Made by a program: the position numbers and the translations under genes
From: Escherichia phage vB_EcoS_FFH_1
Sequence record: KJ190157
Length of the DNA: 64,000 bases
Reading direction: 5' to 3' (one strand)
In this document: positions 323 to 63,165 of the stretch, in pieces
Numbering within the stretch: position 1 is the first letter of the stretch
Layout of the letters: each line of letters opens with the position of its first letter
Notes under the pieces: generated by a model
Databases searched by the model: none
Seen by the model: only the letters and a program-made list of their open reading frames with translations
What the model was told of the DNA's origin: nothing

Positions 323-405
323 TATTTGTTTTCCTTTTTGTTTATCAATTTATGAAGTATATTATACAAGAATTTGAAGCGTTTAGCAAATGAATTTTTT
401 AAAAA

Positions 406-711: not shown

Positions 712-740
712 ATTATACTAAATTAGAGGGCTTTAAGCAA
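712..740 (-). promoter_or_regulatory. sigma70-type promoter (TTGCTT-N17-TATAAT) for the 406..684 gene
   Basis: minus-strand -35 at 740-735, -10 at 717-712, 17-nt spacer. Confidence 0.5.
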
Positions 741-1518: not shown

Positions 1519-1543
1519 TGTATACCTCCAATTTATAAAATAT

Positions 1544-1572
1544 ATTATATTTAAATTTCACTAAATAAGCAA
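1544..1572 (-). promoter_or_regulatory. early promoter TTGCTT-N17-TATAAT with downstream ATAAATTGGAGG box
   Basis: minus-strand -35 at 1572-1567, -10 at 1549-1544; just downstream of thyA terminator. Confidence 0.55.
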
Positions 1573-4159: not shown

Positions 4160-4188
4160 ATTATAGCAAATCTGGTAGCGATTAGCAA
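4160..4188 (-). promoter_or_regulatory. sigma70-type promoter TTGCTA-N17-TATAAT for nrdB
   Basis: minus-strand -35 at 4188-4183, -10 at 4165-4160; lies at the 3' edge of the HNH gene. Confidence 0.55.
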
Positions 4189-8194: not shown

Positions 8195-8261
8195 TCCTAT
8201 AGTGTACTTCGCTTCTAACAGAGGATCAACAAAGAGATCTTGTTTATCAACTTACAAATAT

Positions 8262-8290
8262 ATTATAACAAGGTTTACAGCAAAAAGCAA
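8262..8290 (-). promoter_or_regulatory. sigma70-type promoter TTGCTT-N17-TATAAT for phoH operon
   Basis: minus-strand -35 at 8290-8285, -10 at 8267-8262. Confidence 0.55.
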
Positions 8291-10415: not shown

Positions 10416-10422
10416 GCTAATC

Positions 10423-10456
10423 AGCCGGGTTGCTAGTCGACCTGGCTTTTATTTTA
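10423..10456 (+). terminator. putative intrinsic terminator after nrdD
   Basis: imperfect hairpin AGCCGGGTTGCTAGTCGACCTGGCT followed by TTTTATTTTATTT. Confidence 0.45.
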
Positions 10457-10457
10457 T

Positions 10458-10486
10458 TTGCTTTCAGCCAAAAATTTATATATAAT
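10458..10486 (+). promoter_or_regulatory. early promoter, PN25-like (TTGCTT-N17-TATAAT + ATAAATTTGAGGAGG)
   Basis: -35 10458-10463, -10 10481-10486; AT-rich upstream tract. Confidence 0.6.
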
Positions 10487-10515
10487 AGATTTATAAATTT
10501 GAGGAGGTAGGAATT

Positions 10516-12748: not shown

Positions 12749-12750
12749 AT

Positions 12751-13179: not shown

Positions 13180-13188
13180 GGAGGCAGG

Positions 13189-13581: not shown

Positions 13582-13605
13582 TTTTTACTAGCTGAACTCT
13601 GATTA

Positions 13606-13628
13606 CCGAGTCAAAATGACTCGGTTTT
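13606..13628 (+). terminator. intrinsic terminator after paralog B
   Basis: CCGAGTCA-AAA-TGACTCGG 8-bp stem followed by TTTT. Confidence 0.65.
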
Positions 13629-13672
13629 ATCCGTACTCAAGACCAATGATAGCACCATCCGGAAAATTTTAC

Positions 13673-13701
13673 TTGCAGGATGCCCAAAATCTTGATATAA
13701 T
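13673..13701 (+). promoter_or_regulatory. strong sigma70-type promoter TTGCAG-N17-TATAAT with TGn extended -10, no ORF downstream
   Basis: -35 13673-13678, TGA 13693-13695, -10 13696-13701. Confidence 0.5.
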
Positions 13702-14193
13702 ATTTATATTGAGAGACATTAGTAAAAATTGATTTTGCTAATTTTTCTTGTTTACAATCCGCGATACGGAACAGTTAGGCTGCCCCATTAAGGGTTGTTT
13801 TAACTATTACTAGTGTTTATATTGCATTAGTTAATCTTCAATTAAGTGATCTGTGTACCCTGAATTCGGAAAGGTAAATCCAAACCGTGCATATTTAGCT
13901 CGTTATATAGGCAGAGCTTTATATGGGGGTGCGAACGAAAAGAGCAGCGAATGGCGGCACGTACAGTAGTCACCTACCAATAGGATAGTGAGGACAAATA
14001 GAATCGGCTTAGCGGCCAATGACCTAGGTTCTATTCTGTATATGAGCGAAGAGAGCACAGCACTGAGATATGATAACTTATTCATATTGTTTGATGATAA
14101 TTGATGTTTACGTAAATAGTAGTAATAGTTGTTCTATTCTTTCTGAATAGTCCTAAAGAAAAGATTTCTATTAATCAACACAGGAGTATTGTT

Positions 14194-16983
14194 GTGTTTT
14201 CTATCCTCCAAGGTCACGCCGGTTTTTCTCGTGATTTAGCAACAGGTATTTGGCGAGAAATCAAAGCGGAAGATTATACCTTTGCCAAACGATTCTCGAA
14301 AGAGCATCCAGAAGGTAAACCAGCTTCTATGCCCTTCAAATTTGATGTAATAGAAGAGCACGACCCACAAAGCCTTGCCGAAATGTTACCACTTATGAGA
14401 CGTTTAACGTCTGACCCTCATATCGTTGCGGTACGAGGTCGATGTCTTGCACCTAAAAATAATGTGCGACGTAAGAAAGGTAACTTTAATGTATCCAACC
14501 CTAGCAATATTATTGCTATGGACGTGGATGGTATCCTAGATACCGGTGGGTATGACAAGTTTAATCTTGTAGGTATGGCTCGCCACATTATTAAGATGTT
14601 GAATAGTATTAGTGAGGATATGTTTCCTCTTGATGCAGGGTTTATTGCTCATGCATCGTCTTCGGCTGGCCTAAAACCAGGTATCCGAATGCACTTAATG
14701 CTAGAATCTAACGTCAAGGTAACTCAAGGTCAGTTAAAGTTCTTATTTACGTCTATCAATGATAGTAGTAAGCAAAAATTCGGTTTTGATATTGCCGACT
14801 TAGCTTATTACTCATCTGTCCAGCTTCACTATTTTGCCGACCCTTTATTTAGCGATGGTATTGTTGATCCGTTTAAAGCGGAGAGTAAGCCACGTCTGGT
14901 ATATGTTAAAGGTTCGAAGGTAAATTTGCCCAATAATCTGGTTGACTATGAAACAACTAGAGGGGAATTTAAGGAAGAGTTTTATTCTTTACTTGATCAA
15001 ATTAAAGGCAAAAAGATTGCTTCTGATAAAGTAGAAGAAACCATCAGCGAATTGGAAGAAGCCGAGGATGGGGTGTACTTGCGTATTATCCCCAAACTCT
15101 ACCATAGAGCATTAGAGGATGGTGTTGATTTCGCATGGCTAGAACGCGAGATTAAACCCGCTTTATCTGAATATATTGCAACTAAAGATAACAGTCGTAA
15201 TATTCAAGATTACTTTAATAACGGTCGTAAGCAGGCTCTCAAAGCGTTTGTTAATAATTCTAAACGTGAGATCCCATTAAATCTGAAGGGTGTTCCACTC
15301 AAGAAATTAGAAGTGGATTCTCCACCAGAAGTTCCGTACCTGAAGATTAACATTGTGCCTCCAAAAGGCCATATAACATTTGTTAAGGCAAGTCTTGGTA
15401 CTGGTAAGACTACGGCAGTAACTAAATGGCTGGACGCAGGTGTTCTTCCTGGCAACTTTTTAGCAGTTACAAATACTAGAGCACTGGTATCTTCAAACGC
15501 TAAGAAATTTAGCGCAGGACAATATGATAAGTCTGTAGATATGCTCAACTTTAAACGTGGAGCTATTGATCGTATGTCTACAACTATCCACTCTTTGCAT
15601 AAGTTCAAAAGTTTTATTGGTCAAATAGATACCATTTTTATTGATGAATGTGATGCTGTAATGAATGATCTATTATTCGCACCTGTTGTTAAGCAACGTC
15701 GCGAATGTATTCAAGTTCTACGTGACATCCTCATGACAGCTAAAACTGTAATTCTATCAGATGGTGATATTAGTGCCGAAACTATTGAAGCATATGGTTC
15801 TCTAATTGATTTTGATAAACCAGTAGCATTTTATAATCATCACCGTAAGATGCTGTCAAAAGCTCATGCTTATGAGTTCCCGGATGAATCCAGTATTTGG
15901 GTTGCACTTCAGACCTCTCTAGAGATGGGTGAGAAATCTATCCTAGTATCTGATTGTGGGCCGGATGAACTGAATGAGAAGGGCATGGCATTGCGTCGTA
16001 ATACGGGTGCGCTAGTTAAGGAAATCCACTCAAACTCCACTTCAGATGTGGATATTAGACGTATTCTGGATTATACGACTAATGAGTTAATTGATCAACA
16101 AATTGACTGCTTATTATGTAGTCCATCCGTAACGAGTGGCGTTGATTTCAACTATTTTGATAACGTATTTGTTATTACTAGAACTAGTAATCAAGCGCCA
16201 AACATGCGTTTCCAAGCAATTAGGCGCGACCGTGGTGCTCAGAATATCTATTATTTTATTGATAAATCTACGAGTGGATTCTCCGCAGGTTCTGAACAAT
16301 ATAATATTGATGAGGGTTGGCTGGAGTTAGCACAGCAATTATACGCACGTCGCAGAGAGCTAGAATCTAGGAACTATACTAGTACTTTACGTTATTACTT
16401 GCTTGATCAGGGTGCAACTATTGATATTTTCAGTGAAAGTTGGGGAACTATTGAAGGTGCTGGTAAAGAGTACACAGAAGAGCGAATTAAAGCTATTCTA
16501 CATTCAACTCCTGATTATTGTGCTCCACGTCATGCGGATGCGTATGAAGCTAAACTACTTCTTGTCCGCTATTATCATCTTGAGTCTATTAAAGATGTAA
16601 CAGTTGAGCATGTTGAACAATATATCAAAGATAAACCGAATGATCGAGCTGCATTCTTCCATAAGATGCACGAGATGTTCTGGGAAGATATTAAGAAGTG
16701 TTCAAATGTGACCATTAAACCATTCATAGAGGCTCTGAAAGGTAAGAAGAAAGACTTCTTCCTTAAAACAGGTCAGAGTGCTAACCCAAAATATGCTAGA
16801 ATGTATCTTGGTATGATGGGTATTGGTAAGGATATGAACACTGAAAATATTGTAGACTGGTACAGAACCTATTGTAAAATCGAGTGTATGCCAATCCCAT
16901 ATAAGTTTATGACTGATGAGGAGAAACATATGCATGATGAAGCAATGGCAGAGCTAGGTGCTAGAAATGACAGTGAAGAATAA
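14194..16983 (+). CDS. large P-loop NTPase (929 aa), putative replication initiator / origin-binding helicase-like protein
   Basis: GTG start with AGGAG SD; central Walker A LGTGKTT and Walker B FIDECDAV; ~380-aa N-terminal domain of unknown fold. Confidence 0.55.
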   Translation: MFSILQGHAGFSRDLATGIWREIKAEDYTFAKRFSKEHPEGKPASMPFKFDVIEEHDPQSLAEMLPLMRRLTSDPHIVAVRGRCLAPKNNVRRKKGNFNVSNPSNIIAMDVDGILDTGGYDKFNLVGMARHIIKMLNSISEDMFPLDAGFIAHASSSAGLKPGIRMHLMLESNVKVTQGQLKFLFTSINDSSKQKFGFDIADLAYYSSVQLHYFADPLFSDGIVDPFKAESKPRLVYVKGSKVNLPNNLVDYETTRGEFKEEFYSLLDQIKGKKIASDKVEETISELEEAEDGVYLRIIPKLYHRALEDGVDFAWLEREIKPALSEYIATKDNSRNIQDYFNNGRKQALKAFVNNSKREIPLNLKGVPLKKLEVDSPPEVPYLKINIVPPKGHITFVKASLGTGKTTAVTKWLDAGVLPGNFLAVTNTRALVSSNAKKFSAGQYDKSVDMLNFKRGAIDRMSTTIHSLHKFKSFIGQIDTIFIDECDAVMNDLLFAPVVKQRRECIQVLRDILMTAKTVILSDGDISAETIEAYGSLIDFDKPVAFYNHHRKMLSKAHAYEFPDESSIWVALQTSLEMGEKSILVSDCGPDELNEKGMALRRNTGALVKEIHSNSTSDVDIRRILDYTTNELIDQQIDCLLCSPSVTSGVDFNYFDNVFVITRTSNQAPNMRFQAIRRDRGAQNIYYFIDKSTSGFSAGSEQYNIDEGWLELAQQLYARRRELESRNYTSTLRYYLLDQGATIDIFSESWGTIEGAGKEYTEERIKAILHSTPDYCAPRHADAYEAKLLLVRYYHLESIKDVTVEHVEQYIKDKPNDRAAFFHKMHEMFWEDIKKCSNVTIKPFIEALKGKKKDFFLKTGQSANPKYARMYLGMMGIGKDMNTENIVDWYRTYCKIECMPIPYKFMTDEEKHMHDEAMAELGARNDSEE

Positions 16984-17200
16984 AAAATGGGAAACAAGGA
17001 AGTTCCCAGTAAAAGAACGTAAAGTTCCTGTTTATGATACTTCGGAAAAGCTATGTAGGGTGGTACCGCATAGATTAGCTGGTATCCCTAACATATCCGA
17101 ATGGTTACTTAAACAACGGAAAACAAACGTGTCTCTTCGCATCGGCTTTGAGTTAGATAAAGTCTATGCTGAACTTGCTTCTTTGCTCAAGGAATCGTAA
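16958..17200 (+). CDS. hypothetical protein (80 aa)
   Basis: ORF overlapping the end of the 929-aa gene; no motif. Confidence 0.3.
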   Translation: MLEMTVKNKKWETRKFPVKERKVPVYDTSEKLCRVVPHRLAGIPNISEWLLKQRKTNVSLRIGFELDKVYAELASLLKES

Positions 17201-17208
17201 AAATTTAT

Positions 17209-17237
17209 TTGCATAGTTCAAAAAATTTCTGTATAAT
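17209..17237 (+). promoter_or_regulatory. early promoter nearly identical to T5 PN25 as remembered
   Basis: AAAATTTATTTGCAT...TTCTGTATAATAGATTCATAAATTTGAGAGAGGAGTT; -10 17232-17237. Confidence 0.7.
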
Positions 17238-17268
17238 AGATTCATAAATTTGAGAGAGGAGTTTAAAT

Positions 17269-17973
17269 ATGGCTGGTTCTCGCAGAAAGAAACATATCCA
17301 TGAAATCCCGGATGAAGTCTTTAAAAAAGTTATAGAGCATCTGGAGAACGGTGGTACTAAGAAAGCAGCATGTGAAATGCTTGGCGTATCATCCAACCCA
17401 ACTATGGAAAGGATGATAGAAGAGTGGCAAGATCGCCAAATTCAAGTTGCCGAGATGAAGAAAAAGAAACGTGGCACACTCATTGAAGGCATTGAGTTGG
17501 CCAACGTTATTGAACAGTATCTATCTGGCGATTCTTTTGAAGAGATTGCCGATCGTAATTACCGCTCTGTAGCAATGGTTAAATCTGTTCTGGAACGCTA
17601 TGGTGCTCTGCTTCGTTTGAACGATATTGTAGATCCATTGAATCCACCAATTATTCCTGATGATGCTGTAGCAGAAGAATTTGAGGTAGGTGAGCTTGTT
17701 TGGGTTCCTGGATACCAGTGTATCGGTGAAATCAAAAAAGCAATGGATACCCCTGTTGGTTGTTACCGTGTATGGCTTCTATCAGAAGGCAAACAACAGA
17801 ACGTTCATTATATGAATTATGAGTTGGCTTCTGTTAAACATCTGGAAAAGCTAGGGGTTGATGTAAAATCTCTAGGGTATAAGTGGACTCGTGAAGAAGT
17901 TATTACGTTGATTAACGAAGCTGTTAAGGCTGCCTTGAAACTTGATAAAGAAAAAGGAAAACGCCGTGAGTAG
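17269..17973 (+). CDS. helix-turn-helix protein, putative early regulator
   Basis: Downstream of near-PN25 promoter and GAGAGGAG SD; HTH-like segment TKKAACEMLGVS near N-terminus. Confidence 0.55.
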   Translation: MAGSRRKKHIHEIPDEVFKKVIEHLENGGTKKAACEMLGVSSNPTMERMIEEWQDRQIQVAEMKKKKRGTLIEGIELANVIEQYLSGDSFEEIADRNYRSVAMVKSVLERYGALLRLNDIVDPLNPPIIPDDAVAEEFEVGELVWVPGYQCIGEIKKAMDTPVGCYRVWLLSEGKQQNVHYMNYELASVKHLEKLGVDVKSLGYKWTREEVITLINEAVKAALKLDKEKGKRRE

Positions 17974-18217
17974 ACTAACTGATTTACTTAAAGATGGGGA
18001 AATAAAAACACTATATCGTAGAAGCTGGGATAACGATAATAACGGCTTAGTGTTACTAACTTTAGATGCTGACTCGGATGTAGCTACTCAGCATACCTGG
18101 GTAGCCGGTAACTATCCATATAGCGAGGTTGTTTCATTAACAGTATGCGAAGCTATTGCAGATGATTGGGAGGTTGCCAGCATCGAGGATATGCTCGCTG
18201 TTGGCCTGGTGGAGTAA
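17942..18217 (+). CDS. hypothetical protein (~83-91 aa)
   Basis: ORF; alternative GTG start at 17966 overlapping upstream stop. Confidence 0.35.
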   Translation: MIKKKENAVSRLTDLLKDGEIKTLYRRSWDNDNNGLVLLTLDADSDVATQHTWVAGNYPYSEVVSLTVCEAIADDWEVASIEDMLAVGLVE

Positions 18218-18234
18218 CTACTTAAAAATTTCAG

Positions 18235-18263
18235 TTGCTTAATCCTACAATTCTTGATATAAT
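18235..18263 (+). promoter_or_regulatory. early promoter TTGCTT-N17-TATAAT with TG extended -10
   Basis: -35 18235-18240, -10 18258-18263. Confidence 0.6.
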
Positions 18264-18320
18264 ATTCTCATAGTTTGAAAGAACTATTCTGTTTAATTCT
18301 TAATTAAGGAAATATAAAAT

Positions 18321-18731
18321 ATGACTACTCCAACTCAGTGGACTGATGAACTGTTCGAAAAAATGTCTTCCGAATACGTTGCTCGTATGGAGCAATTCCC
18401 AGAGGATGAACGTCCGGGTGTTAGCATGGAAATTGTTAGCGAAATTGCCCAGGAAAACGGTGTAACTCCGAACGGTTTTCGTATGAAGCTGACTAAAGCA
18501 GGTTTGTATATTAAGAAAGCTGCTGGTTCTACTTCTAAATCTAGCGCATCTACTGGAGAAAAAGCTTCTGGTGGTTCTCGTACCTCCAAAGCTCAAGCCC
18601 ATGCCGACCTTCGCGCAGCATTCTCTGACGCTGGCTTAGCACCAGATTTTCTGGATGATGCAATTATCGACAAACTGACCGGTAAAGCGGCTGCTCATCT
18701 GGCAGAAGCAATCCGAGCTATCACTAAGTAA
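18321..18731 (+). CDS. hypothetical protein (136 aa), probably highly expressed
   Basis: TTGCTT-N17-TATAAT promoter with TG extension upstream; E. coli-optimal codon bias; Ser/Ala/Gly-rich linker. Confidence 0.55.
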   Translation: MTTPTQWTDELFEKMSSEYVARMEQFPEDERPGVSMEIVSEIAQENGVTPNGFRMKLTKAGLYIKKAAGSTSKSSASTGEKASGGSRTSKAQAHADLRAAFSDAGLAPDFLDDAIIDKLTGKAAAHLAEAIRAITK

Positions 18732-18767
18732 TTTTTAGATAAATCCACCAACAAAAGGAACACAGTT

Positions 18768-19064
18768 ATGACCAAAGCTGAAATTATCGCACAATGTGAA
18801 AAATTTGGTGAGTTTTATCTTCATTACGAGAAACTTCGTCAGAAAGGAACCACGTACCTTCAGGGTACGATGGAATTTGATCCAGCCCAAGATAAATATC
18901 TGGCTGAGCGTATTAAACGTGAACGTATTCGTAAAGCGAAAGATGATGAGATCCTTGTCTTCTCTCGTACTAATGATAGCTTCCGTTTTATTCCTGTTGA
19001 GAAAGTCCGTCGTGTGACTAGCCTCCAATCAGAGTTAGATCGTGCTTCTCCAGTAGGCCGATAA
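18768..19064 (+). CDS. hypothetical protein (98 aa)
   Basis: ORF with AAAGGAA SD followed by intrinsic terminator; overlapping alternative-frame ORFs judged spurious. Confidence 0.5.
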   Translation: MTKAEIIAQCEKFGEFYLHYEKLRQKGTTYLQGTMEFDPAQDKYLAERIKRERIRKAKDDEILVFSRTNDSFRFIPVEKVRRVTSLQSELDRASPVGR

Positions 19065-19074
19065 GAAACCAATT

Positions 19075-19096
19075 AGCCCCTATATGGGGCTTTTTG
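19075..19096 (+). terminator. intrinsic terminator
   Basis: AGCCCC-TATAT-GGGGCT hairpin followed by TTTTTGTG. Confidence 0.6.
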
Positions 19097-19114
19097 TGTA
19101 TTTGGGATATGTAA

Positions 19115-19423
19115 ATGAGCGAACAGGTAAATCAAAACTATGAAGGACACGTTGATGACCAGTCCATCATACTTTGGGAGAAGGAGGGGGAACAAGTAAG
19201 ATTAACAGTATCGGAATTTCGTGGGAATCTATACATGGGTATTCGTTACTGGCTTCTTGATATTAATGATGAATGGTTTCCAACGAAATCTGGCTTCTCT
19301 TTTCCTTACACCCTAGAAACAACATCACAGCTTTTCTACGCGTTTACACAGATTCTTAGTGAATCTGAGGTTTTACATGAGGTACAGAAACGAGCTGAAG
19401 AACTCAAAGCCAAGAATGCCTAG
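19115..19423 (+). CDS. hypothetical protein (102 aa)
   Basis: ORF whose stop lies within an intrinsic terminator hairpin. Confidence 0.5.
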   Translation: MSEQVNQNYEGHVDDQSIILWEKEGEQVRLTVSEFRGNLYMGIRYWLLDINDEWFPTKSGFSFPYTLETTSQLFYAFTQILSESEVLHEVQKRAEELKAKNA

Positions 19424-19440
19424 TTCTTGGCTTTTTCTTT
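19408..19440 (+). terminator. intrinsic terminator overlapping stop codon of 19115..19423
   Basis: AGCCAAGAA / TTCTTGGCT 9-bp stem followed by TTTTCTTT. Confidence 0.6.
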
Positions 19441-19450
19441 ATAAATGTAT

Positions 19451-19479
19451 TTGCTTTCAACTCAGTTTTGTTATATAAT
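19451..19479 (+). promoter_or_regulatory. early promoter TTGCTT-N17-TATAAT + ATTTATATAAATTGATGAGAG box (ligase A)
   Basis: -35 19451-19456, -10 19474-19479. Confidence 0.6.
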
Positions 19480-19510
19480 ATTTATATAAATTGATGAGAG
19501 ATACAAATAA

Positions 19511-20482
19511 ATGACTAATGTAAAAAACTTTATTAAACGTTGCCAAGAAGCGTACTACCAGGGAATGTCTTTAATCTCTGACGAAGAATATGATCGTCTG
19601 ATTAAAAGATTTCCGTTAGAAGAAGAGATCGGTCCTAAGGGCGATATTCCACATCTGTATCGTATGTATTCTTTACAGAAAGTTTATTATAATCGTGGAG
19701 ATAAACCTCCGTTTAACCCATTAGGTCAGGTAGAAACTGATAAGTTAGATGGTTGTGCGATTTCTCTGCTATATATTAATGGCGAATTTGTTCAAGCACT
19801 AACTCGTGGTAATGGTATTCTAGGGAATGATGTCACAAGCAACGTAAGATTGCTGAACATTCCTAAAAAGATTTCCCAAAAAGTACCTACTCAAATCACT
19901 GGTGAAGTTCTAATTACAAAAGAAGTAGAAAATAAACGTAACTTTGCCTCTGGTGCTATTAACCTCAAAGATAGTGATGATTTCGTACAACGTATCGGGG
20001 AAGGTGGTTTAATCTTTGTTGCATATGGTATCCAGTGTTCTGCTGAATCTGTAGGTATTACAGAAGCATATTTAAAAGATATGCTTTGGCTAGAGAATGA
20101 GAACTTCTTAACAGTTGTTAATGTACGTTCCTTCTTTAAATGGATTCCGACGGACGGTAAAGTTGTTCGTATTAATGACAACAACAAATTCTTCCGCGAA
20201 GGCTGGACTAATAAATTCCCTCGCGGGGCGTTCGCTATTAAAGAGGATGAAGAAGGCGAGATTACAACTCTTACTAAAGTTGAATGGCAGGTAGGGGCTT
20301 CTGGTAAAGTAACTCCAGTTGGTTATTTCGAACCGGTAATTATTGATGATGCTACAATTGTTAAAGCGACTCTTAATAACGTTGATTATATTAACTCTCT
20401 CTATCTAGAGATCGGTTGCCAGATTCGAGTGATTCGTGCTGGTGGTGTAATCCCGTGTATAGTAGAGCGAGTATACGATTAA
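19511..20482 (+). CDS. lig: NAD-dependent DNA ligase, adenylation-domain subunit (N-terminal half of a split LigA)
   Basis: KxDG adenylation motif TDKLDGCA; 323 aa ending before Zn-finger/HhH/BRCT region; PN25-like promoter upstream. Confidence 0.8.
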   Translation: MTNVKNFIKRCQEAYYQGMSLISDEEYDRLIKRFPLEEEIGPKGDIPHLYRMYSLQKVYYNRGDKPPFNPLGQVETDKLDGCAISLLYINGEFVQALTRGNGILGNDVTSNVRLLNIPKKISQKVPTQITGEVLITKEVENKRNFASGAINLKDSDDFVQRIGEGGLIFVAYGIQCSAESVGITEAYLKDMLWLENENFLTVVNVRSFFKWIPTDGKVVRINDNNKFFREGWTNKFPRGAFAIKEDEEGEITTLTKVEWQVGASGKVTPVGYFEPVIIDDATIVKATLNNVDYINSLYLEIGCQIRVIRAGGVIPCIVERVYD

Positions 20483-20532
20483 TACATAACCCTTTGCTAC
20501 CCATCTACCATATCGGAATTATAAAGTGGTTA

Positions 20533-20561
20533 TTGACATTTTCGCCGCTTAGGTATATACT
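20533..20561 (+). promoter_or_regulatory. sigma70-type promoter TTGACA-N17-TATATA in inter-ligase spacer
   Basis: -35 20533-20538, -10 20556-20561. Confidence 0.45.
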
Positions 20562-20625
20562 ATTATCATTCAGTTGAGGGATAGAAAGTTATGGCGAGGG
20601 TAAGCAAAGTTAGTTAAAATTGTAG

Positions 20626-20654
20626 TTGCTAAATGCTTAAATACTTGCTATAAT
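20626..20654 (+). promoter_or_regulatory. early promoter TTGCTA-N17-TATAAT + ATTTATATAAATTGATAAGGAAG box (ligase B)
   Basis: -35 20626-20631, -10 20649-20654. Confidence 0.6.
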
Positions 20655-20684
20655 ATTTATATAAATTGATAAGGAAGAAATTTG

Positions 20685-21464
20685 ATGAAAATCGAAATTC
20701 CAACACAATGTCCCTCTTGTGGTTCTAAGCTAGATCTTGTCAACGGACAATTATTCTGTCGTAATAAGTCCAACTGTCCAGCGCAATCAAGCAAGTTAAT
20801 TGAGAACTTCTGTTCAAAAATGAAGTTAAAGGGCTTTGGCCCAAAAACTATTGAGAAGCTGGAGCTGACGAAGATTTCAGAACTATTTTACCTAACCGAA
20901 GAAGATTTGGTTAGAGTCGTGGGTAGCAAGGTTGCCGCTAAGTTAATTAGCGAATTAAATACTAAAGTTCGCGGAGACATTGACTTTGGTTCAGTTCTCG
21001 GTTCTTTAGGAATCCCTCTAATTGGAGAGGTTGCAGCAAAGAAATTATCCCAAAATTGCACTAGCTTCCACGATGTGAAGGCTGACGGCAAGGCTGGAGA
21101 AAATTACAAAGCCTGGCTAAATTCCCCACAAGGCAAGGATGTTATTGAACTACCGTGGAAATTTTCAACTGGTATTAAGGGCACTAAAGCTGACGTCATC
21201 ATTACAGATGAATTAGTTGCCCAGCCAAATGGAATCGCGGTATGTATTACCGGATCTTTGCAAGATTTTGCAAATCGAACGGATGCAACAAACTATTTAG
21301 AAGGTCTAGGGTATACGGTTAAGAAATCCGTTACTAAAGACGTCAAATACCTAATCTGTGAGGATGAATCAAAACGTTCTTCCTCATCTTATAAGAAAGC
21401 CGAAACGAATGGGATAGAAATCCTGTCGATTAAAGAACTATTGGAGAAAAATAATAATGTCTAA
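20685..21464 (+). CDS. lig: NAD-dependent DNA ligase, C-terminal subunit (Zn finger, HhH, BRCT-like)
   Basis: Four-Cys finger CPSCGSKL...CRNKSNCP, helix-hairpin-helix-like GFGPKTIEKL, BRCT-like C-terminus; own promoters in the 200-bp spacer. Confidence 0.75.
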   Translation: MKIEIPTQCPSCGSKLDLVNGQLFCRNKSNCPAQSSKLIENFCSKMKLKGFGPKTIEKLELTKISELFYLTEEDLVRVVGSKVAAKLISELNTKVRGDIDFGSVLGSLGIPLIGEVAAKKLSQNCTSFHDVKADGKAGENYKAWLNSPQGKDVIELPWKFSTGIKGTKADVIITDELVAQPNGIAVCITGSLQDFANRTDATNYLEGLGYTVKKSVTKDVKYLICEDESKRSSSSYKKAETNGIEILSIKELLEKNNNV

Positions 21465-22224: not shown

Positions 22225-22241
22225 TCTGGTAAATTAAACCT

Positions 22242-22276
22242 AAGGGGAGGGGGCTATGCTCCTTCCCCTTTTTGCA
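22242..22276 (+). terminator. intrinsic terminator after the HTH-repeat protein gene
   Basis: AAGGGGAGG ... CCTTCCCCTT hairpin followed by TTTTGC. Confidence 0.65.
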
Positions 22277-22306
22277 TTTAGAAGGCACGAAAGCGTGCAA
22301 AGGAGA

Positions 22307-23779: not shown

Positions 23780-24666
23780 GTAGAATAACAGAACTACTTG
23801 ATCTGAAAGGCATTGAATATAAAGACACAGGTGGGGACATCCTCATCTGTTGTCTCAATCCAGATCATGACGATAAACACCCAAGTTTGCGTATTGATCC
23901 TGAAACAGGTATTATGCACTGCTTGAGTTGTGGCTTCGGTAAAGGTATACCGAGCATTTACCATTATTTTAATGAGACTCAGTACCGACAGTCTCCAAGA
24001 CTATCACAGGTACGTAAAAAGATTTCAGAGATTAGGAATGGATCAACGAATCTTGCAATTCCTGAATCTGCTTACCTTTTCGAAGGTGATTTCCGAGGTA
24101 TAAGTTCTAAGACCTTGAAGAAATATTTTGCTTTCCAACACCAAGCAGACTGGGAAGGCAGAATTGTATTCCCAATCACAGATGCTGTTGGACGCAATAT
24201 CCTATTTTTGGGTCGTTCTATAAACAGTTCTGCCCCTCCTAAATACTTAGTAAAACCAAAACAAGTTTCACCGCCAATTTTTCCTGTACGATATAATACT
24301 CCAGTTCTTATTCTAGTTGAAGGCATCTTTGATATGCTGAACCTAGAGGATAATGGTATAGACTATGCTTCTTGCTGCTTTGGTACACATCAGTTTACTT
24401 CGGATAACATTGCAGATAAGTTCAGTCCTTATATTATTGCTGGGGTAAAAGTTGTTGTTATCTTACTAGATAATGATGCTTCTGGTAATAAAGCTGCACA
24501 AGCATTGGCTAAGCTAATTCGTACAAAAACGCGTTTAACACCTGTAGTTGCTAACTTCCTCCTGCCTGAAGGCAAAGATCCAGGTGATTTAAACAAAGAT
24601 GAAATTGATATGTTAGCAAAACGTATTGAAATTTTAGTTGCTGAATCGCTTAAAGATTTGGTATAA
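23776..24666 (+). CDS. DNA primase (DnaG-like, zinc-binding + Toprim)
   Basis: Zn motif CCLNPDHDDKHP...HCLSCG and Toprim motifs EGIFDMLNL / LLDNDASGNKAA; ATGA overlap with helicase. Confidence 0.8.
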   Translation: MSRITELLDLKGIEYKDTGGDILICCLNPDHDDKHPSLRIDPETGIMHCLSCGFGKGIPSIYHYFNETQYRQSPRLSQVRKKISEIRNGSTNLAIPESAYLFEGDFRGISSKTLKKYFAFQHQADWEGRIVFPITDAVGRNILFLGRSINSSAPPKYLVKPKQVSPPIFPVRYNTPVLILVEGIFDMLNLEDNGIDYASCCFGTHQFTSDNIADKFSPYIIAGVKVVVILLDNDASGNKAAQALAKLIRTKTRLTPVVANFLLPEGKDPGDLNKDEIDMLAKRIEILVAESLKDLV

Positions 24667-24728
24667 TATATTGGTAAGTTAGAGAAGAAACACTGAAGTT
24701 ATACTTACTTACCAAGAGGAGATTAAAT

Positions 24729-27786: not shown

Positions 27787-29135
27787 AGGTTGTTATATCT
27801 AATAAAGCCTATTTCAAGCCCGATGATGAACTTTGGGATTATTGTAGTAAGCAAACCACTTATCATATAGAGACAATGACTAGTAAATACCCTATTATGT
27901 ATAAGAATAGTGGTGTTGTTGCCAAAGAGATTAAGTGGATTCCTATTACGCGTCTGGACTTACTGGATGCTAAAGGAGTAAAATACGAATTAGTCGATAA
28001 ACGCACATTAGCTCCGGTAGGTATACCAAAACCTAAGTTCAAGCTGCGTGAAGAAGATCAGCTTCCAATATACGAAGAATGCGATGATACCTGTATTATT
28101 AATGGTAAGCCTGGATTTGGTAAAACTATCCTAGCCCTTGCACTTGCGTATAAATTTGGCCAGAAAACTTTGGTAATTTGTACCAACACATCTATTCGTG
28201 AAATGTGGGCGGCAGAAGTTCGTAAATGGTTTGGGTTTGAACCAGGTATCATAGGTTCTGGGAAATACAATATTGATCCACCAATTGTGGTCAGTAATAT
28301 TCAAACAGTGAATAAACATGCGAATAATCTTTCTAAAGTATTCGGTACTGTTATAGTTGATGAAGTTCACCATTGTGTGGCTACAACTTTCACTAACTTC
28401 CTAGAAATATCATGTGCTCGCTATAAGATTGGGCTATCTGGAACATTAAAACGTAAAGATGGTCTACAAGTTATGTTCAAAGATTTCTTTGGATATAAGA
28501 TATTTAGCCCACCGGTTAATAATACTGTTGCACCTACAATCCATAGATACTCCGTACCTGTTGAGTTATCAGGGAACCAAAACGTACCATGGGCATTACG
28601 TGCTAACGATGTATATAATCATCCTGAATATCGAGAGAATATTATAAATCTAGCACATTTATATGTGAATATGGGGCATAAAGTACTCATTGTAAGTGAC
28701 AGAACAGAGTTAATCCAAACAGTACTAGAAGCTCTTGCGCAGCGTGGTGTTACAACATATGAAATTATAGGGGCAACTCACTTAGATGACCGATTAAAAA
28801 TTCAGGAAGATATAGCAAAAGGTGGACCTTGTGTACTTGCAGCAGCTCAAAGTATCTTCTCTGAAGGTATTTCCCTTAATGAGCTATCTTGTTTAATAAT
28901 GGGAAGCCTCATTAATAATGAATCTCTCATTGAACAGCTTGCAGGCCGTGTTCAACGTATTGTCGATGGTAAACTCGACCCTATTGTTGTGGATCTGATT
29001 ATGAAAGGTGGCACTGGACTAAGACAGGCTTCTGGACGTATGGCAGTATATCGTAACAACGGGTGGAAAACTATTACTATGACTCCAGAGAAAGCAGTTC
29101 AATTAGCTAAAATTGCATTTGGCAACAGCTTATAA
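27783..29135 (+). CDS. SF2 DNA helicase (DExH-box)
   Basis: Walker A GKPGFGKT, DEVHH box, C-terminal helicase motifs; 450 aa. Confidence 0.8.
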   Translation: MKVVISNKAYFKPDDELWDYCSKQTTYHIETMTSKYPIMYKNSGVVAKEIKWIPITRLDLLDAKGVKYELVDKRTLAPVGIPKPKFKLREEDQLPIYEECDDTCIINGKPGFGKTILALALAYKFGQKTLVICTNTSIREMWAAEVRKWFGFEPGIIGSGKYNIDPPIVVSNIQTVNKHANNLSKVFGTVIVDEVHHCVATTFTNFLEISCARYKIGLSGTLKRKDGLQVMFKDFFGYKIFSPPVNNTVAPTIHRYSVPVELSGNQNVPWALRANDVYNHPEYRENIINLAHLYVNMGHKVLIVSDRTELIQTVLEALAQRGVTTYEIIGATHLDDRLKIQEDIAKGGPCVLAAAQSIFSEGISLNELSCLIMGSLINNESLIEQLAGRVQRIVDGKLDPIVVDLIMKGGTGLRQASGRMAVYRNNGWKTITMTPEKAVQLAKIAFGNSL

Positions 29136-29147
29136 ATGATGTATAAT
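29119..29147 (+). promoter_or_regulatory. early promoter (TTGGCA-N17-TATAAT + ACATAAATTTGAGAGAG box), first of tandem pair
   Basis: -10 29142-29147; conserved downstream box. Confidence 0.55.
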
Positions 29148-29218
29148 ATATACATAAATTTGAGAGAGAAAGTTTCGGATTGATAAGAAAGTCCAAAGCA
29201 GAAAAATAAAAATTTTAG

Positions 29219-29248
29219 TTGCTAAATTCTCTCGAAATATAGTATAAT
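29219..29248 (+). promoter_or_regulatory. early promoter (TTGCTA-N18-TATAAT + ACATAAATTCGAGGAG box), second of tandem pair
   Basis: -10 29243-29248; ~100 bp after the first copy. Confidence 0.55.
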
Positions 29249-29631
29249 ATATACATAAATTCGAGGAGAAAACAAAATTAAATTCTTCAATTATGAAAAG
29301 CTATACTTATTAGCTAGAGGAAATTCCGACCTAATTATTAAGCTATTCAAAAGAATGCTTACAGAGCCTGATGCTCACCAATTATTGGTAGGTTCCTCAT
29401 TCATTTTGAATGAATCAACAATAGTTGATAATCCAAATAAATTGTCTAATAGACAACTGGCAGAATATCTAGGAATTTTAAGTCTACGAAATTATGCCGA
29501 ATACAAGTTTACAAACGATCCTAGTTTGGACATACAATATGTTCCAGTATGGATACCACGTTTAGTAATCGACACTAACCCACTAATCGCAATTAACAAA
29601 TCGAAATTAATCTTTAAAGAGGAAATAAAAT

Positions 29632-45808: not shown

Positions 45809-45835
45809 AGTTAATTTCTCCTCTTTAATAACAAT

Positions 45836-45917: not shown

Positions 45918-48900
45918 TTAAGAATTTCCTAATGTTTTCAGACTAGCACCGTTCTCATTCAGAGCTAATTCTACTGCGTCTCTTAGAGCACCACTATTAC
46001 TAGAAGCAAACTCTCTAAAACTTGCAGCATCCATAGCACTAATATTCAGGATGATAGGTCTTCCTGAAGTTGAGTTAGACGAGGTTTTTAGCTCATCATT
46101 AGGTGTAGCTTTCATAGGAACCATAGGGGTAACTACTTCTGTACCATGCTCACCCATTTGATAGCTAACCCCTGGATACATATTACCACCCTCAGCACGA
46201 GGAACGAAAGAGTTGGCACTACCTATACCTTGATCGCCACGAATATAAGATAGTTCACCTGCATTAGCAGACATGGACACATCTATATTCTTCTGACGCT
46301 CTCCTAAGGTTAAGTAACTAGTTGTATCCGCCCCAGAATCAGCAATACTTGACATACCAGATGCAGAAGATGCTTGTGCTAATGCCAATGCACCCGCTAA
46401 ACCTGCCGCAACCATTAAAGGAATAGAGAACGGGTATGGTACAGCTGTTGCCGCTTGCATTACAGCTACTGCAGTTTGGATGATAATCTGCTTCTTAGCT
46501 GCGTCTTGTTGAATCTTCAGCTTTTCAGCTTCCAACTTCTTCAACTTAGCTTTAGATGCTTCTGATTTACCATCACGTTTCTGTTCTGCTGCGATAGCTG
46601 CATCAATAGCACTAACCTGTTGACTAGTACTATACTGAATCATAGAAGATACAGTTTGCATGCCAGAAGCAATCAAGGAGGTAGTATCTAGGGATCCCTG
46701 AGAGAACTGGATCATAGCGTTAGTTAAGTTACCCATACTTTGAGCCACAGCGGTTGCTTCAGAATTTAATTCAGATAGCTTAGAGATTGCCTGATCATAA
46801 GAAGCCATTCTATTTTGCATATCTGCAAAATCTTTGTCTTCCCCCGATAGTCCAGTTGTAGGAGTGTACACAGCACCCACAGAAGATCCTACCTGTTGCT
46901 GCATTTGGCCTTCTCTTTGCTTTCTAAGTTGCTCTAGAGCAGCAGCAGTTTTATAGATCTCATTACGATACTTGATCTCTTCTTCGGTATTGCCCTTAGA
47001 TAGTTCTAGCTGTTCTTGCAAAACAGATAATCTTTCCGTAAGAATCTGAGCTTGGCCAGTAACATTTCTTTGTGTTTGGCTGACTTCTAGTGCATCCATG
47101 AGAGCTGATACATGTGAGGCAGTTGCCTGCTTCTCCGTTTCCCATAGTTCCCTACTTATTTGTGCTTGAGCACGTCTAGACTGTTCCGCCTCTTTCTGTT
47201 TGTCCGCTTGTTTTGTATACCATTCGTACTTCTCTTTCTCTACAGTTAGTTCTAGTTTTAGCTGAGCTAATCTATATTGAGTAGTAGTCATAGTACGGTC
47301 ATTCAGAAGAGCTATCTCACGATCTACACCAAGAATTTTATCTGTGTAATCCTTGACCTTCTTCTGAGCTTCCATACCCTGATTGGTAAGTTTAAGTTTC
47401 TCCAGCTGAATTTTTTCAATTTCTTTCTCAACAGCTTTATTCCCCTGGTTTGTTTGAAGAACACGGCGTAAAGCAGCTTCTTGCTCTTCTAACTGTTGCA
47501 ACTCTAAACGTCTACCAGCTTCCTGAGCCTTTTCCTTATCCTTAGTTTGAGTGTATACATCAGCTATCTTCTGTTGAACTGCTAACTGATTTTTAGTTTC
47601 ATTACCAGTTAGTTTAACATACTCAGATAGAGCCTGAGATGCAGTTTTCATTTCAGACAGGGTGTTATAACCCAGGTTAAGGTTTTTAACATACTCATCG
47701 GCACTCTTACCGGTACCTAAGGATAGAGATTCTATATTTTTTATAGCATCAGCTAAAGTGGCACTAGTTTTAGCCGCAGTATCTGTATTCTGAGCAACGT
47801 TCTGTATATCATTAGCTAAGTCACTAGCAGTTTTCTTAGTTTGATTATACGCTTTCTGTTGTTCAGTTAGTCCTTTTAATACTGTGGAGTTAAAGTCATA
47901 TACAGCACCAGGATCAGTAGTATCCCTCTGTAGATTAATTTGCTTCTGAAACTCTGGACTAGCCTTTGCAGCAGCGGCCCCAGCAGCTTGATACGCTGAT
48001 TTCCAAGCATTGAGATTCTCTGTAGAATCCTCTACTTCCTTACCAAGTCTAGTTACTTGTAGACCCATAGCTGCAGTTTCTGCTACAAATTGCTTATTGG
48101 CCTCCGAAGCACCTGCTGCTGCAAGACCAACAGGAATACCTTCACCAACTTGACGTATAGCTAGTTTTGTATAGAAATCTGCTTGTTCCATTCGTTTATC
48201 GAACTCAGATTTTAGCTTATTACGCTTATCAAGAGATTCCTTATACATATCTAGAGCTTTATTATACCCTTCTTCAGAAGCGGCTAAACTTAAAGCAACA
48301 GCACCAACGTTGGTAGGATCTATCTGTCTATTAGTTTTTTCTTGAGCTCTAGCTGCTTCAGCAGATACAGAAGCCTGAGAAGTATAAAATACTGTGTTGA
48401 TAGCATCAATTACGGGCCCTAAGTATTTAGCAGCAGCCTGCTGAATCTTTCTCAGTGCGGCATCAGCATTAGCGGCAAATTGCTCCCACGGAGTAGCACG
48501 TAAAACTTCATCTAAGTAGCCAAAACGTTTAGTAGACTCTGCTATAACAGCATTAGCATACGCCTGCTGTTTCTGGAAAGTAGTAAGGCTGTTAATATTA
48601 TATGTTATACCTGTGTTTGCAGCATTTAACTGCTTAACGTAATCAGCATAAGCATCATTAAGACGAATAGTAACACCAAGTTCATCCAGAAGTTCGATTT
48701 CTTGTTTAGATACACCCTTAATTACACGGTTAAGTGCATCAGTCATATCAACGCCAAGAACAGCAGCAGCACGACGAGCTACTAAACCAAATTTATTAAG
48801 TTGTTCGGCGTCAAATCCATAAGCGGACGCTGAGGATGCTTGCCTCATAGCTTCTTCAAAAGAGATTGCATAGCCAGCTGCCTCTTGTAGTGATCTAGCA

Positions 48901-53337: not shown

Positions 53338-54105
53338 TTAGGTTCCTTGATTAACCTTAATTTTGTATCTGGAGTGAATTAAGTCTCTTGCAGCTTTAGC
53401 TATCGCCTCTCCAATTAGTCTTTGAGGGTTTCTAGCACCTGGGTAGGGTCGTAATGACAATCTTCGATATGTGGATACTGCAGGATTAAATACTGAATAT
53501 GGACGTACCATATAATTATATGTAACATTTAATTCAGGAGCACCTTTGCTAGTTCCAGCATCTCTAAGCATAACATCTTTAACTTTTAGAGAATTTGCAA
53601 AACGACCTGTTCTAAATTTAAGTGGAGCTCCTGCTTTTTTCATATCCTTTATTAAGTATTCTTTAGCAACCAATTCCAGAATAACCTTCATATTACTATT
53701 TGATACAAAACGACCAGAAGCACCTGTTACTGCACCAGAATATCCGTCTTCTACGTCTCTAGGATCCCCAAAGTTTACTTGAACCCTACCAGTAGAACGT
53801 TTTTTACCTACAGAGGATTTTTTACCAGCGGTTGCTTGAATAAGACTTTCTAAAGCACCTAAATCTCCAGAAAGATCTAAACTAGAGGATACAGCTTTTA
53901 ATATAGAAGCTGTTCTAATGTTAAGTAGATCTTGTGATACAGGTTTTGAGAATTTAAAAGATACCTGAGCAACAGTACCATCTCTAGTAGGATCTTTCAG
54001 TCCTGTTTCAACAAAGTATACAACAGTATTCTTATTGTTCTCGGAACGCCCAACATTATCTAGCTGCTCCTTAATAATTTGTGTAGCTAAATCAGAAAGA
54101 GACAT
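53338..54105 (-). CDS. head-tail joining protein (255 aa)
   Basis: Position in neck-gene block. Confidence 0.4.
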   Translation of the reverse strand: MSLSDLATQIIKEQLDNVGRSENNKNTVVYFVETGLKDPTRDGTVAQVSFKFSKPVSQDLLNIRTASILKAVSSSLDLSGDLGALESLIQATAGKKSSVGKKRSTGRVQVNFGDPRDVEDGYSGAVTGASGRFVSNSNMKVILELVAKEYLIKDMKKAGAPLKFRTGRFANSLKVKDVMLRDAGTSKGAPELNVTYNYMVRPYSVFNPAVSTYRRLSLRPYPGARNPQRLIGEAIAKAARDLIHSRYKIKVNQGT

Positions 54106-62717: not shown

Positions 62718-62746
62718 TTGCTTATACTGCCATAATTCTGTATAAT
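62718..62746 (+). promoter_or_regulatory. early promoter TTGCTT-N17-TATAAT for llp
   Basis: -35 62718-62723, -10 62741-62746, downstream TATTATAAATT box. Confidence 0.6.
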
Positions 62747-62777
62747 AGTATTATAAATTAAATAGAGGAGAATGTAA

Positions 62778-63011: not shown

Positions 63012-63165
63012 GGAGAATCCCTCCCATAAACCCATACCACTTAGGGTGGATCCTAGGTCAAAACTAGTTCACAATGCAATTGAGGTCATTCAGAACACCA
63101 TATAAGATAAAATGTTATGACTCGTGCAATTGCTAGAATATTTCAAAAATCACAATTATAGGAGC

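Follow-up and report, generated by a model that had tools for sequence, protein, structure and literature searches.

Putative early promoters of a T5-like phage, including a natural variant of PN25 upstream of D2, and their probable escape-promoting box at the start of transcription

Upstream of the D2 homologue of a T5-like phage, at 17200-17270 of the 64,000-nucleotide stretch of DNA analysed here (the window), lies a sequence that an earlier note took to be the T5 promoter PN25 almost base for base and, at the same time, one copy of an early promoter family in which a box downstream of the start site is conserved. The question that this locus raises is what such a box belongs to: the promoter, the leader RNA or the ribosome-binding site of the gene that follows. 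The ground is not new, in that the promoter family, PN25 and the role of the transcribed region in promoter escape are already known. Since the 1980s the early promoters of T5, PN25 above all, have been textbook strong promoters and a standard model for the study of abortive initiation and escape; the ‘T5 promoter’ of expression vectors derives from them. PN25 is also named in an mBio paper, where it is used only as a tool.

Comparison with T5 and its relatives over 24 kb places the window in Tequintavirus, with approximately 95-97% identity to T5. The RefSeq annotation of T5 (NC_005859) lists P-N25, P-N26, P-K28a/b, P31A/B and P-H207 along with unnamed promoters and, with 46 T5 promoter features as blastn queries, 20 positional orthologues were found in the window. 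All the promoter-like sites listed in the earlier note are present and map onto annotated T5 promoters, most of them with 96-100% identity; PN26, PK28a, PK28b and Ppol match T5 at 75 of 75 positions. From these alignments the flagged sites are taken to be sigma-70-dependent early promoters of a T5-like phage, and the assignment to an early family stands. The pattern TTGCTT-N17-TATAAT, with at most one mismatch, gave 12 matches in the window versus 1.18 expected, and none of 100 shuffles reached 12, whereas a generic sigma-70 consensus scan of positions 10001-30000 returned 58 sites versus 59 expected, with no enrichment. The family is invisible to the generic scan because the latter is too loose, only the specific pattern being enriched. 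A pattern match at 13004 on the minus strand was rejected as a chance occurrence, as it lies inside an ORF and has neither the A/T block nor the box described below. Departures from the claimed TTGCTT-N17-TATAAT include the copies at 17209 (TTGCAT), 29119 (TTGGCA) and 29219 (TTGCTA with an 18-nt spacer).

The AT-rich upstream tract was also borne out. A AAAAATTT-like A/T block is conserved directly 5' of the −35 element in 15 copies, with AAAAtTttA kept in columns −33 to −23 relative to the −10 hexamer. The family shows the traits of the T5 early class, namely an UP-like A/T-rich block at about −38 to −46, a TTGCT(T/A)-like −35 element separated from TATAAT by 17 nt, occasionally 18, and an A/T-rich discriminator of the ATATT type, described by Klimuk et al. 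2020 (PMC7472727) as common to all T5 early promoters. In the first two positions of the discriminator A is invariant and T is found in 12 of the 15 copies (z = 10.9 over shuffles). Within the window the family is confined to the early region.

The T5 feature ‘promoter P-N 25’ (63043..63117, before D2 at 63122), which is the published PN25 sequence (primer IM103, PMC4447248), aligns to 17189-17263 of the window. Here, on the plus strand, the UP-element-like A/T block taaaaatttat (17198..17208) starts where the preceding ORF (16958-17200) has its stop codon and directly adjoins the −35 element TTGCAT (17209..17214; TTGCTT in T5). A 17-nt spacer leads to the −10 element TATAAT (17232..17237), which is followed by the discriminator AGATTC (17238..17243), the same in T5 PN25 and in the syntenic promoter of Vibrio phage D315, and by the initial transcribed box ATAAATTTGA (17244..17253, +1 to +10). 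A17244 is the predicted start site, with +1 taken from PMC7472727. The ORF at 17269-17973 is the D2 homologue (99% to T5-like D2 proteins); its Shine-Dalgarno sequence GGAG lies at 17258..17261 and its ATG at 17269, and the GAGAGGAG tail of this copy is simply the D2 ribosome-binding site.

The claimed base-for-base match to PN25 holds from −18 to +20, where 38 of 38 nucleotides are identical, but not overall, since ungapped comparison with the 75-nt T5 promoter gives 64 of 75 identical positions. The 11 differences comprise one −35 base, seven positions of the spacer and three of the upstream A/T block, and this is the least T5-like copy among the named promoters. By alignment, the copy at 17209-17263 is a positional orthologue and natural variant of PN25 rather than the same sequence, and it may be stronger or weaker than T5 PN25, given the weaker −35 element (TTGCAT) and the altered spacer. 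Fifteen phages in the database, e.g. vB_EcoS_HASG4, have the exact variant (identity of at least 99%). The state of the nearby HNH endonuclease gene hegI, present or absent, was considered as a correlate of the diverged spacer and rejected, as Salmonella phage 1-29 is likewise without hegI but keeps the T5 spacer.

The other members are spread over both strands. On the minus strand, the P-H207 orthologue (345..389, −10 at 366; 74 of 75 positions identical to T5) has TTGCTA-N17-TATAAT, a 7-nt discriminator and the box ATAAATTGA, and the promoter 5' of the RNase H homologue (1528..1572) has TTGCTT-N17-TATAAT and the box ATAAATTGG. The orthologues of the T5 promoters at 46337 (712..740, TTGCTT-N17-TATAAT, −10 at 717) and 50061 (4160..4188, TTGCTA-N17-TATAAT, −10 at 4165) are without box, the former having ATTGAAAG in its place, and that of the T5 promoter at 53638 (8247..8290, TTGCTT-N17-TATAAT, −10 at 8267) has a degenerate box, GTAAGTTGA, and a 70-nt leader. 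On the plus strand, the orthologue of the T5 promoter at 55708 (10458..10502), directly preceded by a terminator hairpin at 10423-10447, reads TTGCTT-N17-TATAAT-AGATTT-ATAAATTTGA, and that of the T5 promoter at 58999 (13673..13720, −10 at 13696), 5' of the origin-binding protein gene, has TTGCAG-N17-TATAAT and is without box (ATTGAGAGA). Beyond D2, the P-N26 orthologue (18235..18278, TTGCTT-N17-TATAAT) has a degenerate box, ATAGTTTGA, and a 51-nt leader to the D3 homologue. The promoter of ligase subunit A (19451..19494), preceded by a terminator hairpin at 19406-19434, and the P-K28a orthologue (20626..20669) have TTGCTT and TTGCTA, respectively, followed by N17-TATAAT-ATTTAT-ATAAATTGA. The DNA polymerase promoter Ppol (24638..24682, −10 at 24662; T5 70987..71061) has TTGCTG-N18-TATAAT, a degenerate box, GTAAGTTAG, and a 55-nt leader. 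The P31A and P31B orthologues (29119..29163 and 29219..29263) read TTGGCA-N17-TATAAT-ATATAC-ATAAATTTGA and TTGCTA-N18-TATAAT-ATATAC-ATAAATTCG, respectively, and the promoter of the llp/Cor lipoprotein gene (62718..62761; T5 110349..110423) reads TTGCTT-N17-TATAAT-AGTATT-ATAAATTAA. The members with −10 elements at 366(−), 717(−), 4165(−), 8267(−), 13696(+) and 24662(+) were absent from the earlier note, as were two TTGACA-type promoters without box, at 8506(+) and 20556(+).

Where present, the box, ATAAATT(T)GA, lies 6-7 nt after the −10 hexamer. In the N25 data given by Klimuk et al. 2020 (PMC7472727), TATAATAGATTCAT corresponds to −12 to +2, so that +1 falls on the first A of ATAAATT and the box spans +1 to +9/10. 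Counted from the start of the −10 element, ATAAATT stands at offset 12-13 in nine of the 22 window promoters, versus approximately 0.16 expected (22 × 0.0071; binomial p = 2e-14), and it follows none of 93 TATAAT hexamers that have no −35 element; each of the eight ATAAATT[N]GA copies in the window is linked to a promoter. Positional conservation reaches z of approximately 10 for the discriminator and +1 to +9, a value attained by none of 5000 within-sequence shuffles, so the alignment goes beyond what a Shine-Dalgarno sequence within AT-rich DNA would give by composition. The same test yields z of only 1.8 for +10 to +20 (the GAGAGAGGAG part), and the truly conserved element is therefore about 10 nt long and not 18, the GAGAGGAG tail being a Shine-Dalgarno tract of variable position. 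As in the ‘downstream region’ of PN25, the distance to the start site is fixed and +1 to +20 is A/T- and purine-rich; at 17244-17263 the window copy is identical to the N25 initial transcribed sequence (ITS). No box accompanies PG25 and PJ5, which are late promoters, or the promoters of TTGACA type and, in the annotated T5 set, the box accompanies 22 of 31 TTGC-type promoters versus one of seven of the TTGAC type (Fisher p = 0.01). It is dispensable for promoter function, as it is exact in only 9 of 22 cases and degenerate in the active T5 promoters PN26 and Ppol.

The preferred explanation, and a probable one, is that these are early composite sigma-70 promoters with an escape-promoting initial transcribed box, the PN25 orthologue driving D2. 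Each promoter would be a composite signal for unmodified host RNA polymerase, composed, in order, of the A/T block, the TTGCT(T/A) −35 element, the 17-nt spacer, TATAAT, the A/T-rich discriminator (ATATT or AGATT) and the box at +1. The upstream parts would bind polymerase very fast and tightly, so that escape would become rate limiting; an A/T-rich, purine-biased sequence in the first ten transcribed positions would then lower the cost of early scrunching and translocation, and polymerase would clear the promoter quickly rather than engage in abortive cycling. The box corresponds to the PN25 ‘downstream region’, i.e. its initial transcribed sequence, for which the documented role is at the level of DNA and RNA polymerase. 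Where transcription starts and how the transcribed sequence affects escape are carried over here from published experiments on T5 PN25, and the other copies, as well as the window variant, are presumed to behave alike. N25 is described as an escape-limited promoter in PMC12464699, where replacement of its downstream region with the ‘anti’ sequence is reported, citing Kammerer et al. 1986, to cut productive RNA by approximately 10-fold, with more abortive cycling, and to slow escape from a half-life of approximately 3 min to approximately 45 min. More generally, the ITS can alter promoter strength in vivo by more than 10-fold (PMC5961368).

It is improbable that the box acts instead in the RNA, as an unstructured A/U-rich 5' leader aiding ribosome loading or mRNA half-life, and this estimate includes S1 binding upstream of the Shine-Dalgarno site as the proposed loading route. 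In seven copies the box does lie 18-31 nt before the start codon, with a purine-rich Shine-Dalgarno tract after it, and, for the copies with the exact box, folding predicts an unpaired 5' AUAAAUU. However, the distance to the start codon is variable, rising to approximately 100 nt for P31B and approximately 200 nt for P31A, and in T5 the same box is found in P15b with tRNA-Ser starting at +9, only 8 nt beyond it, and P16-17 drives a stable RNA. None of the 26 ATAAATT copies outside promoters in the window precedes a Shine-Dalgarno sequence and a real ORF, so that internal operon genes do not use the box. No secondary structure common to the leaders emerged among the seven that were folded (z near 0), the one nominal exception being P31A (z = −2.1), whose fold is not shared with the other copies, and an Rfam scan of the whole window gave no family at gathering score. 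Moreover, according to PMC12464699, purified transcription systems show the influence of the transcribed part of PN25. The position of the box follows the start site rather than the ribosome-binding site, and neither a merging of the element into the ribosome-binding site nor a shared 5' leader element is supported in the form that had been suggested.

Beyond the preferred escape-promoting role, the distribution of the box bears on whether the exact word carries information of its own. Per 30 kb, Epseptimavirus and the Klebsiella, Pectobacterium, Proteus and Vibrio demerecviruses have the box at 3-6 promoters (fewer than 0.1 expected), and members sharing the exact word have proteins that are only approximately 37% identical. 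Such recurrence points to purifying selection, and the recurrence across Demerecviridae, Vibrio phages included, is what these comparisons appear to add; a literature search for promoter motifs across T5-like phages returned nothing specific. In viral contigs, TATAAT-N6-ATAAATTnGAG gave at least 133 matches, counted without a composition-matched control and with a pattern that itself selects short-leader promoters; among those listed, 79 are in T5-like loci and 54 in unrelated contigs, so the word is not exclusive to Demerecviridae. Among the listed matches in unrelated contigs, 31 of 54 have a TTG −35 element, mostly TTGACA, and TTGACA-N17-TATAAT-N6-ATAAATTnGAG often stands directly before GGAG and ATG, an arrangement that would suit a role in the leader RNA but is also one that the pattern favours.

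On these data, exact ATAAATT(T)GA at +1, the TTGC −35 element and the A/T discriminator might jointly form a sequence-specific Demerecviridae class signal, which is doubtful, as is the proposal that it would be read through a sigma or core contact in initial transcription (possibly with a sigma-dependent pause) or by a phage factor for early timing. In its phage-factor form, which is likewise unlikely, the box with the TTGC −35 element and the ATATT discriminator would mark the class for a phage factor or a phage-modified RNA polymerase, with gpT5.026, D5 or A1-dependent functions as candidates for switching early promoters on or off as a group, an equally tentative addition. The box is confined to promoters of the early class, where its presence varies with the type of −35 element. 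General ITS studies find no obvious motif and composition effects only, e.g. of purine content (PMC5961368); generic easy escape is therefore insufficient to explain a family-wide exact ATAAATT, and its retention at approximately 37% protein identity goes beyond composition-based escape models. Klimuk et al. (PMC7472727) propose the early-specific discriminator as the basis of the differential effect of gpT5.026, and their account states that the mechanisms of T5 switching are unknown. Against such a mark stands the great strength of PN25, PH207 and other promoters both in uninfected E. coli and with pure polymerase; among the matches listed, moreover, unrelated phage contigs show similar ITS words at single promoters, with TTGACA as the −35 element.

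A sigma-recapture role is very improbable. On the non-template strand, TAAATT at +2 to +7 would mimic a −10 element (TAnnnT) and recapture sigma-70, so that polymerase would pause close to the promoter, at about +16 to +18. Its placement resembles that of the pause element of lambda PR', where such a pause occurs; 12 of the 15 members have T at +2 and T at +7, and 11 have A at +3. T5 is not known to have a Q-like antiterminator. No conserved pause-site sequence lies downstream, as +10 to +20 is not positionally conserved, and the account of N25 initiation in PMC12464699 has abortive products of 2-10 nt give way to full-length RNA, with no pause among the steps it describes. Shared ancestry alone, with promoter cassettes recently copied and a box without function of its own, can hardly be credited, because, although copies are alike over approximately 60 nt, spacer motifs included, the box is kept at orthologous as well as paralogous promoters of Pectobacterium, Proteus, Klebsiella and Vibrio phages with diverged spacers and flanks and the PN25 transcribed region has an experimental effect (PMC12464699).

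The natural PN25 variant, with a different −35 element and spacer and with −10, discriminator and ITS untouched, offers a ready-made test of which parts of the promoter matter. Preservation of the start-site box in demerecviruses of distant hosts, set against ITS effects of composition only, poses the modest question of why the exact word is kept; a class signal, if true, would provide a handle on the T5 early-to-late switch.

Among known systems, the sigma-70 pause elements of lambda PR' and lacUV5 resemble the present family only in that a −10-like word, here TAAATT, falls among the first 10 transcribed bases of the non-template strand; the T5 promoters have no documented pause or antiterminator. 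Similarity to rrnB P1, among UP-element sigma-70 promoters, lies in the A/T-rich block adjoining the −35 element and in the near-consensus hexamers. At rrn promoters the discriminator is rich in G+C and the open complexes are short-lived. Unlike rrnB P1, the T5 family combines an A/T-rich discriminator and ITS with limitation at escape, as described for N25 in PMC12464699. With the T5 early class (NC_005859; Klimuk et al. 2020) the window promoters share the A/T block, the TTGCT −35 element, TATAAT and a discriminator starting with AT; the text of Klimuk et al. (PMC7472727) stresses the discriminator rather than the box at +1 to +9, and in the window the promoter 5' of RNase H has acquired a perfect box, which its T5 orthologue is without. 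Closest of all is T5 PN25 itself (Gentz & Bujard 1985; Kammerer et al. 1986; N25/N25anti of the Hsu laboratory), which occupies the same position upstream of D2: the window copy differs from it in the −35 element TTGCAT, the seven spacer substitutions and the three changes in the upstream A/T block, and is identical to it in TATAAT, the AGATTC discriminator and the transcribed region ATAAATTTGAGAGAGGAGTT.

Database matches place the window among T5-like phages, since a 2-kb query around the promoter region retrieved 468 phage records, all T5-like and from Escherichia and Salmonella hosts (best match, 98% identity), and a 24-kb query (8000-32000) shared 95.5% identity with T5 and approximately 97% with relatives, among them vB_EcoD-Elw and AKFV33. 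The window accordingly belongs to a Tequintavirus, of which it covers the early (replication) and late region, and its counterpart in the T5 genome lies at about 45.9-110.4 kb. Two T5 genes for HNH homing endonucleases are absent from the window, namely hegI (16958-17200; T5 site, origin-binding protein gene/T5.110 homologue) and hegJ (23776-23779; T5 site, D6 helicase/primase).

Twelve matches to TTGCTT-N17-TATAAT with at most one mismatch were found, against 1.18 expected, a number reached in no shuffle. One of them, at 13004 (minus strand), was rejected as a chance hit inside an ORF; it lacks the upstream A/T block as well as the box, as the conserved ATAAATT(T)GA at +1 to +9/10 is called here. 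The early promoter family proposed in the earlier note was confirmed, in that every site it listed is present and these sites are annotated T5 promoters; the exact TTGCTT-N17 form, however, did not hold at 17209 (TTGCAT), 29119 (TTGGCA) and 29219 (18-nt spacer). Members that it did not list have their −10 hexamers at 366, 717, 4165 and 8267 on the minus strand and at 13696 and 24662 on the plus strand. The T5 RefSeq record carries 46 annotated promoters, including P-N25 (63043..63117, upstream of D2), P-N26 (upstream of D3), P-K28b and P-K28a (both upstream of ligase B), P31A, P31B, P-H207 and many unnamed ones. When these 75-nt features were compared with the window by blast, every one from the corresponding region had a positional ortholog. 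On the plus strand they include those of the T5.100 promoter (10458), P-N25 (17209), P-N26 (18235; 75/75), the ligase A promoter (19451), P-K28a (20626; 75/75), P31A (29119), P31B (29219) and the llp/Cor lipoprotein gene promoter (62718), and on the minus strand those of P-H207 (361) and of the promoter upstream of RNase H (1544).

Individual promoters show some peculiarities. That of the RNase H homologue (1528-1572, minus strand) combines a 17-nt spacer with a perfect box (ATAAATTGGAGG); its T5 ortholog (46937..47011) is rearranged and lacks the box. Another TTGCCA-N17-TATAAT promoter (8390-8436, minus strand), ortholog of T5 53776..53850, differs from the family in its G+C-rich discriminator and start region (CACGCACTCGTGCACGCG). 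At 10458 and 19451, the T-runs of intrinsic terminator hairpins (10423-10447 and 19406-19434, respectively) form the A/T block 5' of the −35 element, yielding compact terminator-promoter cassettes.

The PN25 copy (17198-17271) reads taaaaatttat TTGCAT agttcaaaaaatttctg TATAAT agattc ATAAATTTGAGAGAGGAGTTTAAAT ATG. PN25 as published (primer IM103, PMC4447248) is the same as the T5 RefSeq feature, and the copy is identical to it over 38 nt, from −18 to +20; 11 of the 75 positions differ, all further upstream (the −35 element accounts for one, the spacer for seven and the A/T block for three). By this comparison the copy is the ortholog and a natural variant of PN25, not the same sequence; the match described earlier as 'almost base for base' is complete from −18 to +20 but not upstream. 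It is the least T5-like of the window's named promoters, and 15 database phages carry the exact variant (identity at least 99%).

With their −10 hexamers aligned, 15 TTGC-type copies showed a conserved A/T block (AAAAtTttA) adjoining the −35 element, the latter conserved as TTGC, a GC dinucleotide kept in the spacer, and an invariant TATAAT followed directly by an invariant A and frequently by T; an ATATT discriminator is noted by Klimuk et al. (PMC7472727). ATAAATT starts 6-7 nt after the hexamer. Since the same authors give N25 positions −12 to +2 as TATAATAGATTCAT, +1 is the A of ATAAATT, and the box forms the first 9-10 transcribed bases. Exact ATAAATT at offset 12-13 from the first base of the −10 hexamer is present in 9/22 promoters (background chance, 0.007 per promoter; p = 2e-14) and follows none of the window's 93 TATAAT hexamers without a −35 element, and each of the window's eight ATAAATT[N]GA words is linked to a promoter. 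In shuffles keeping each sequence's own composition, positional information was far exceeded by that of the discriminator (z = 10.9) and of +1..+9 (z = 10.1; 0/5000 shuffles), with no such excess at +10..+20 (z = 1.8). The box is thus distinct from a mere Shine-Dalgarno tract plus A/T-richness, the refutation envisaged earlier, for approximately 10 nt; beyond these, GAGAGAGGAG represents a purine-rich Shine-Dalgarno tract that is placed relative to the start codon and not to the promoter.

Among the 46 annotated T5 promoters, 22/31 with a TTGC −35 element carry the box (at most one mismatch) versus 1/7 with TTGAC (Fisher p = 0.01). Neither PG25 nor PJ5, both late promoters with minus-strand −10 hexamers at window positions 45841 and 53010, carries it, nor do the early-region TTGACA-type promoters nrdD (8506) and PK28b (20556). 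The late PG25 ortholog (45808-45846, minus strand) has the leader ATTAAAGAGGAGAAATTAACTATGAGA, probably the origin of the synthetic 'RBSII' in pDS/pQE expression vectors.

Conservation extends beyond T5. Approximately 30 kb around the D2 homologue were taken from five demerecviruses, with D2 proteins 94% to 36% identical to that of the window; only the −35 and −10 hexamers served to pick promoters, and the box was scored at the same offset (at most one mismatch). It was present in 5/12 promoters of Salmonella phage 1-29, 3/11 of Klebsiella phage Kpn9-P3, 4/8 of Pectobacterium phage My1, 6/15 of Proteus phage Stubb and 4/10 of Vibrio phage PG07, with fewer than 0.1 expected in each. The syntenic promoter of Vibrio phage D315 (locus L009, 380-450, downstream of the origin-binding protein gene) reads TTGTCA-N17-TATAAT-AGATTC-ATAAAGTCGAG, its TATAAT-AGATTC-ATAAA being identical to PN25 with D2 proteins only approximately 37% identical. 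Spacers and flanks of the demerecvirus promoters have diverged, so that the box is kept by selection and not recently copied. A search of viral contigs for the box word, biased by its own pattern, found among the matches listed TTGACA-N17-TATAAT-AACAAC-ATAAATT(A/T)GAGAGGTAAA in metagenomic contigs without detectable T5 protein homology (L011, L014, L018, L020, L047, L049, L058, L079, L085 and others), where the start-site word thus recurs in another promoter family.

These sites are best read as composite host-polymerase promoters, in which very strong upstream binding signals would be combined with an initial transcribed sequence (ITS) that would keep escape from becoming prohibitive; this was established on PN25 and would extend to the other copies and to vB_EcoS_FFH_1. 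According to PMC12464699, N25 is limited at escape, which is fast with the native transcribed region (half-life approx. 3 min, linear DNA) and slows to approximately 45 min when +3..+20 are swapped for 'anti', full-length RNA falling approximately 10-fold (citing Kammerer et al. 1986); the native A/T-rich sequence is there thought to be easily accommodated in scrunching. More generally, the ITS can alter promoter output more than 10-fold, initiation pausing being a main route (Heyduk & Heyduk, PMC5961368). However, that work describes composition effects and no strict motif, whereas across the virus family the exact box word is preserved, and its presence varies together with the −35 type. Such a pattern would be compatible with a sequence-specific reader, either the polymerase itself (e.g. 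through the −10-like TAAATT, +2..+7) or a phage factor in the early/late switch, although a phage-only reader is at odds with the activity of T5 early promoters in uninfected cells and with similar words, among the matches listed, at single TTGACA-type promoters of unrelated viral contigs.

The 'shared 5' leader' of the earlier note gives way to an ITS anchored at the start site, as several results speak against a leader element that is structured or specific to translation. The box keeps a fixed distance from the −10 hexamer, whereas that to the start codon varies (mostly 18-31 nt, but approx. 100 nt for P31B and approx. 200 nt for P31A). In T5, P15b (TATAAT-ATATTT-ATAAATTC) has tRNA-Ser following at +9 (ARAGORN), and P16-17 has a stable RNA downstream. 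Of the 26 non-promoter ATAAATT copies in the window, none precedes a ribosome-binding site and real ORF, so that genes lacking a promoter make no use of the word. The leaders have no common fold, and Rfam gave no match in the whole window. In exact-box copies, folding predicts an unpaired 5' AUAAAUU. PN26 and Ppol have degenerate boxes, and their leaders are long (51 and 55 nt, respectively); that of the former (18270-18287) can form a 5'-terminal 7-bp hairpin from +1 (AUAGUUU-GAAA-GAACUAU), of which one of two PN26-like copies in the Klebsiella phage apparently lacks the 3' arm, as judged by reading the sequence alone, and in the latter (24674-24712) GUAAGU pairs with ACUUAC.

The observation is real and was correctly identified; the T5 early promoters and the downstream region of PN25, which it finds anew, have long been known.
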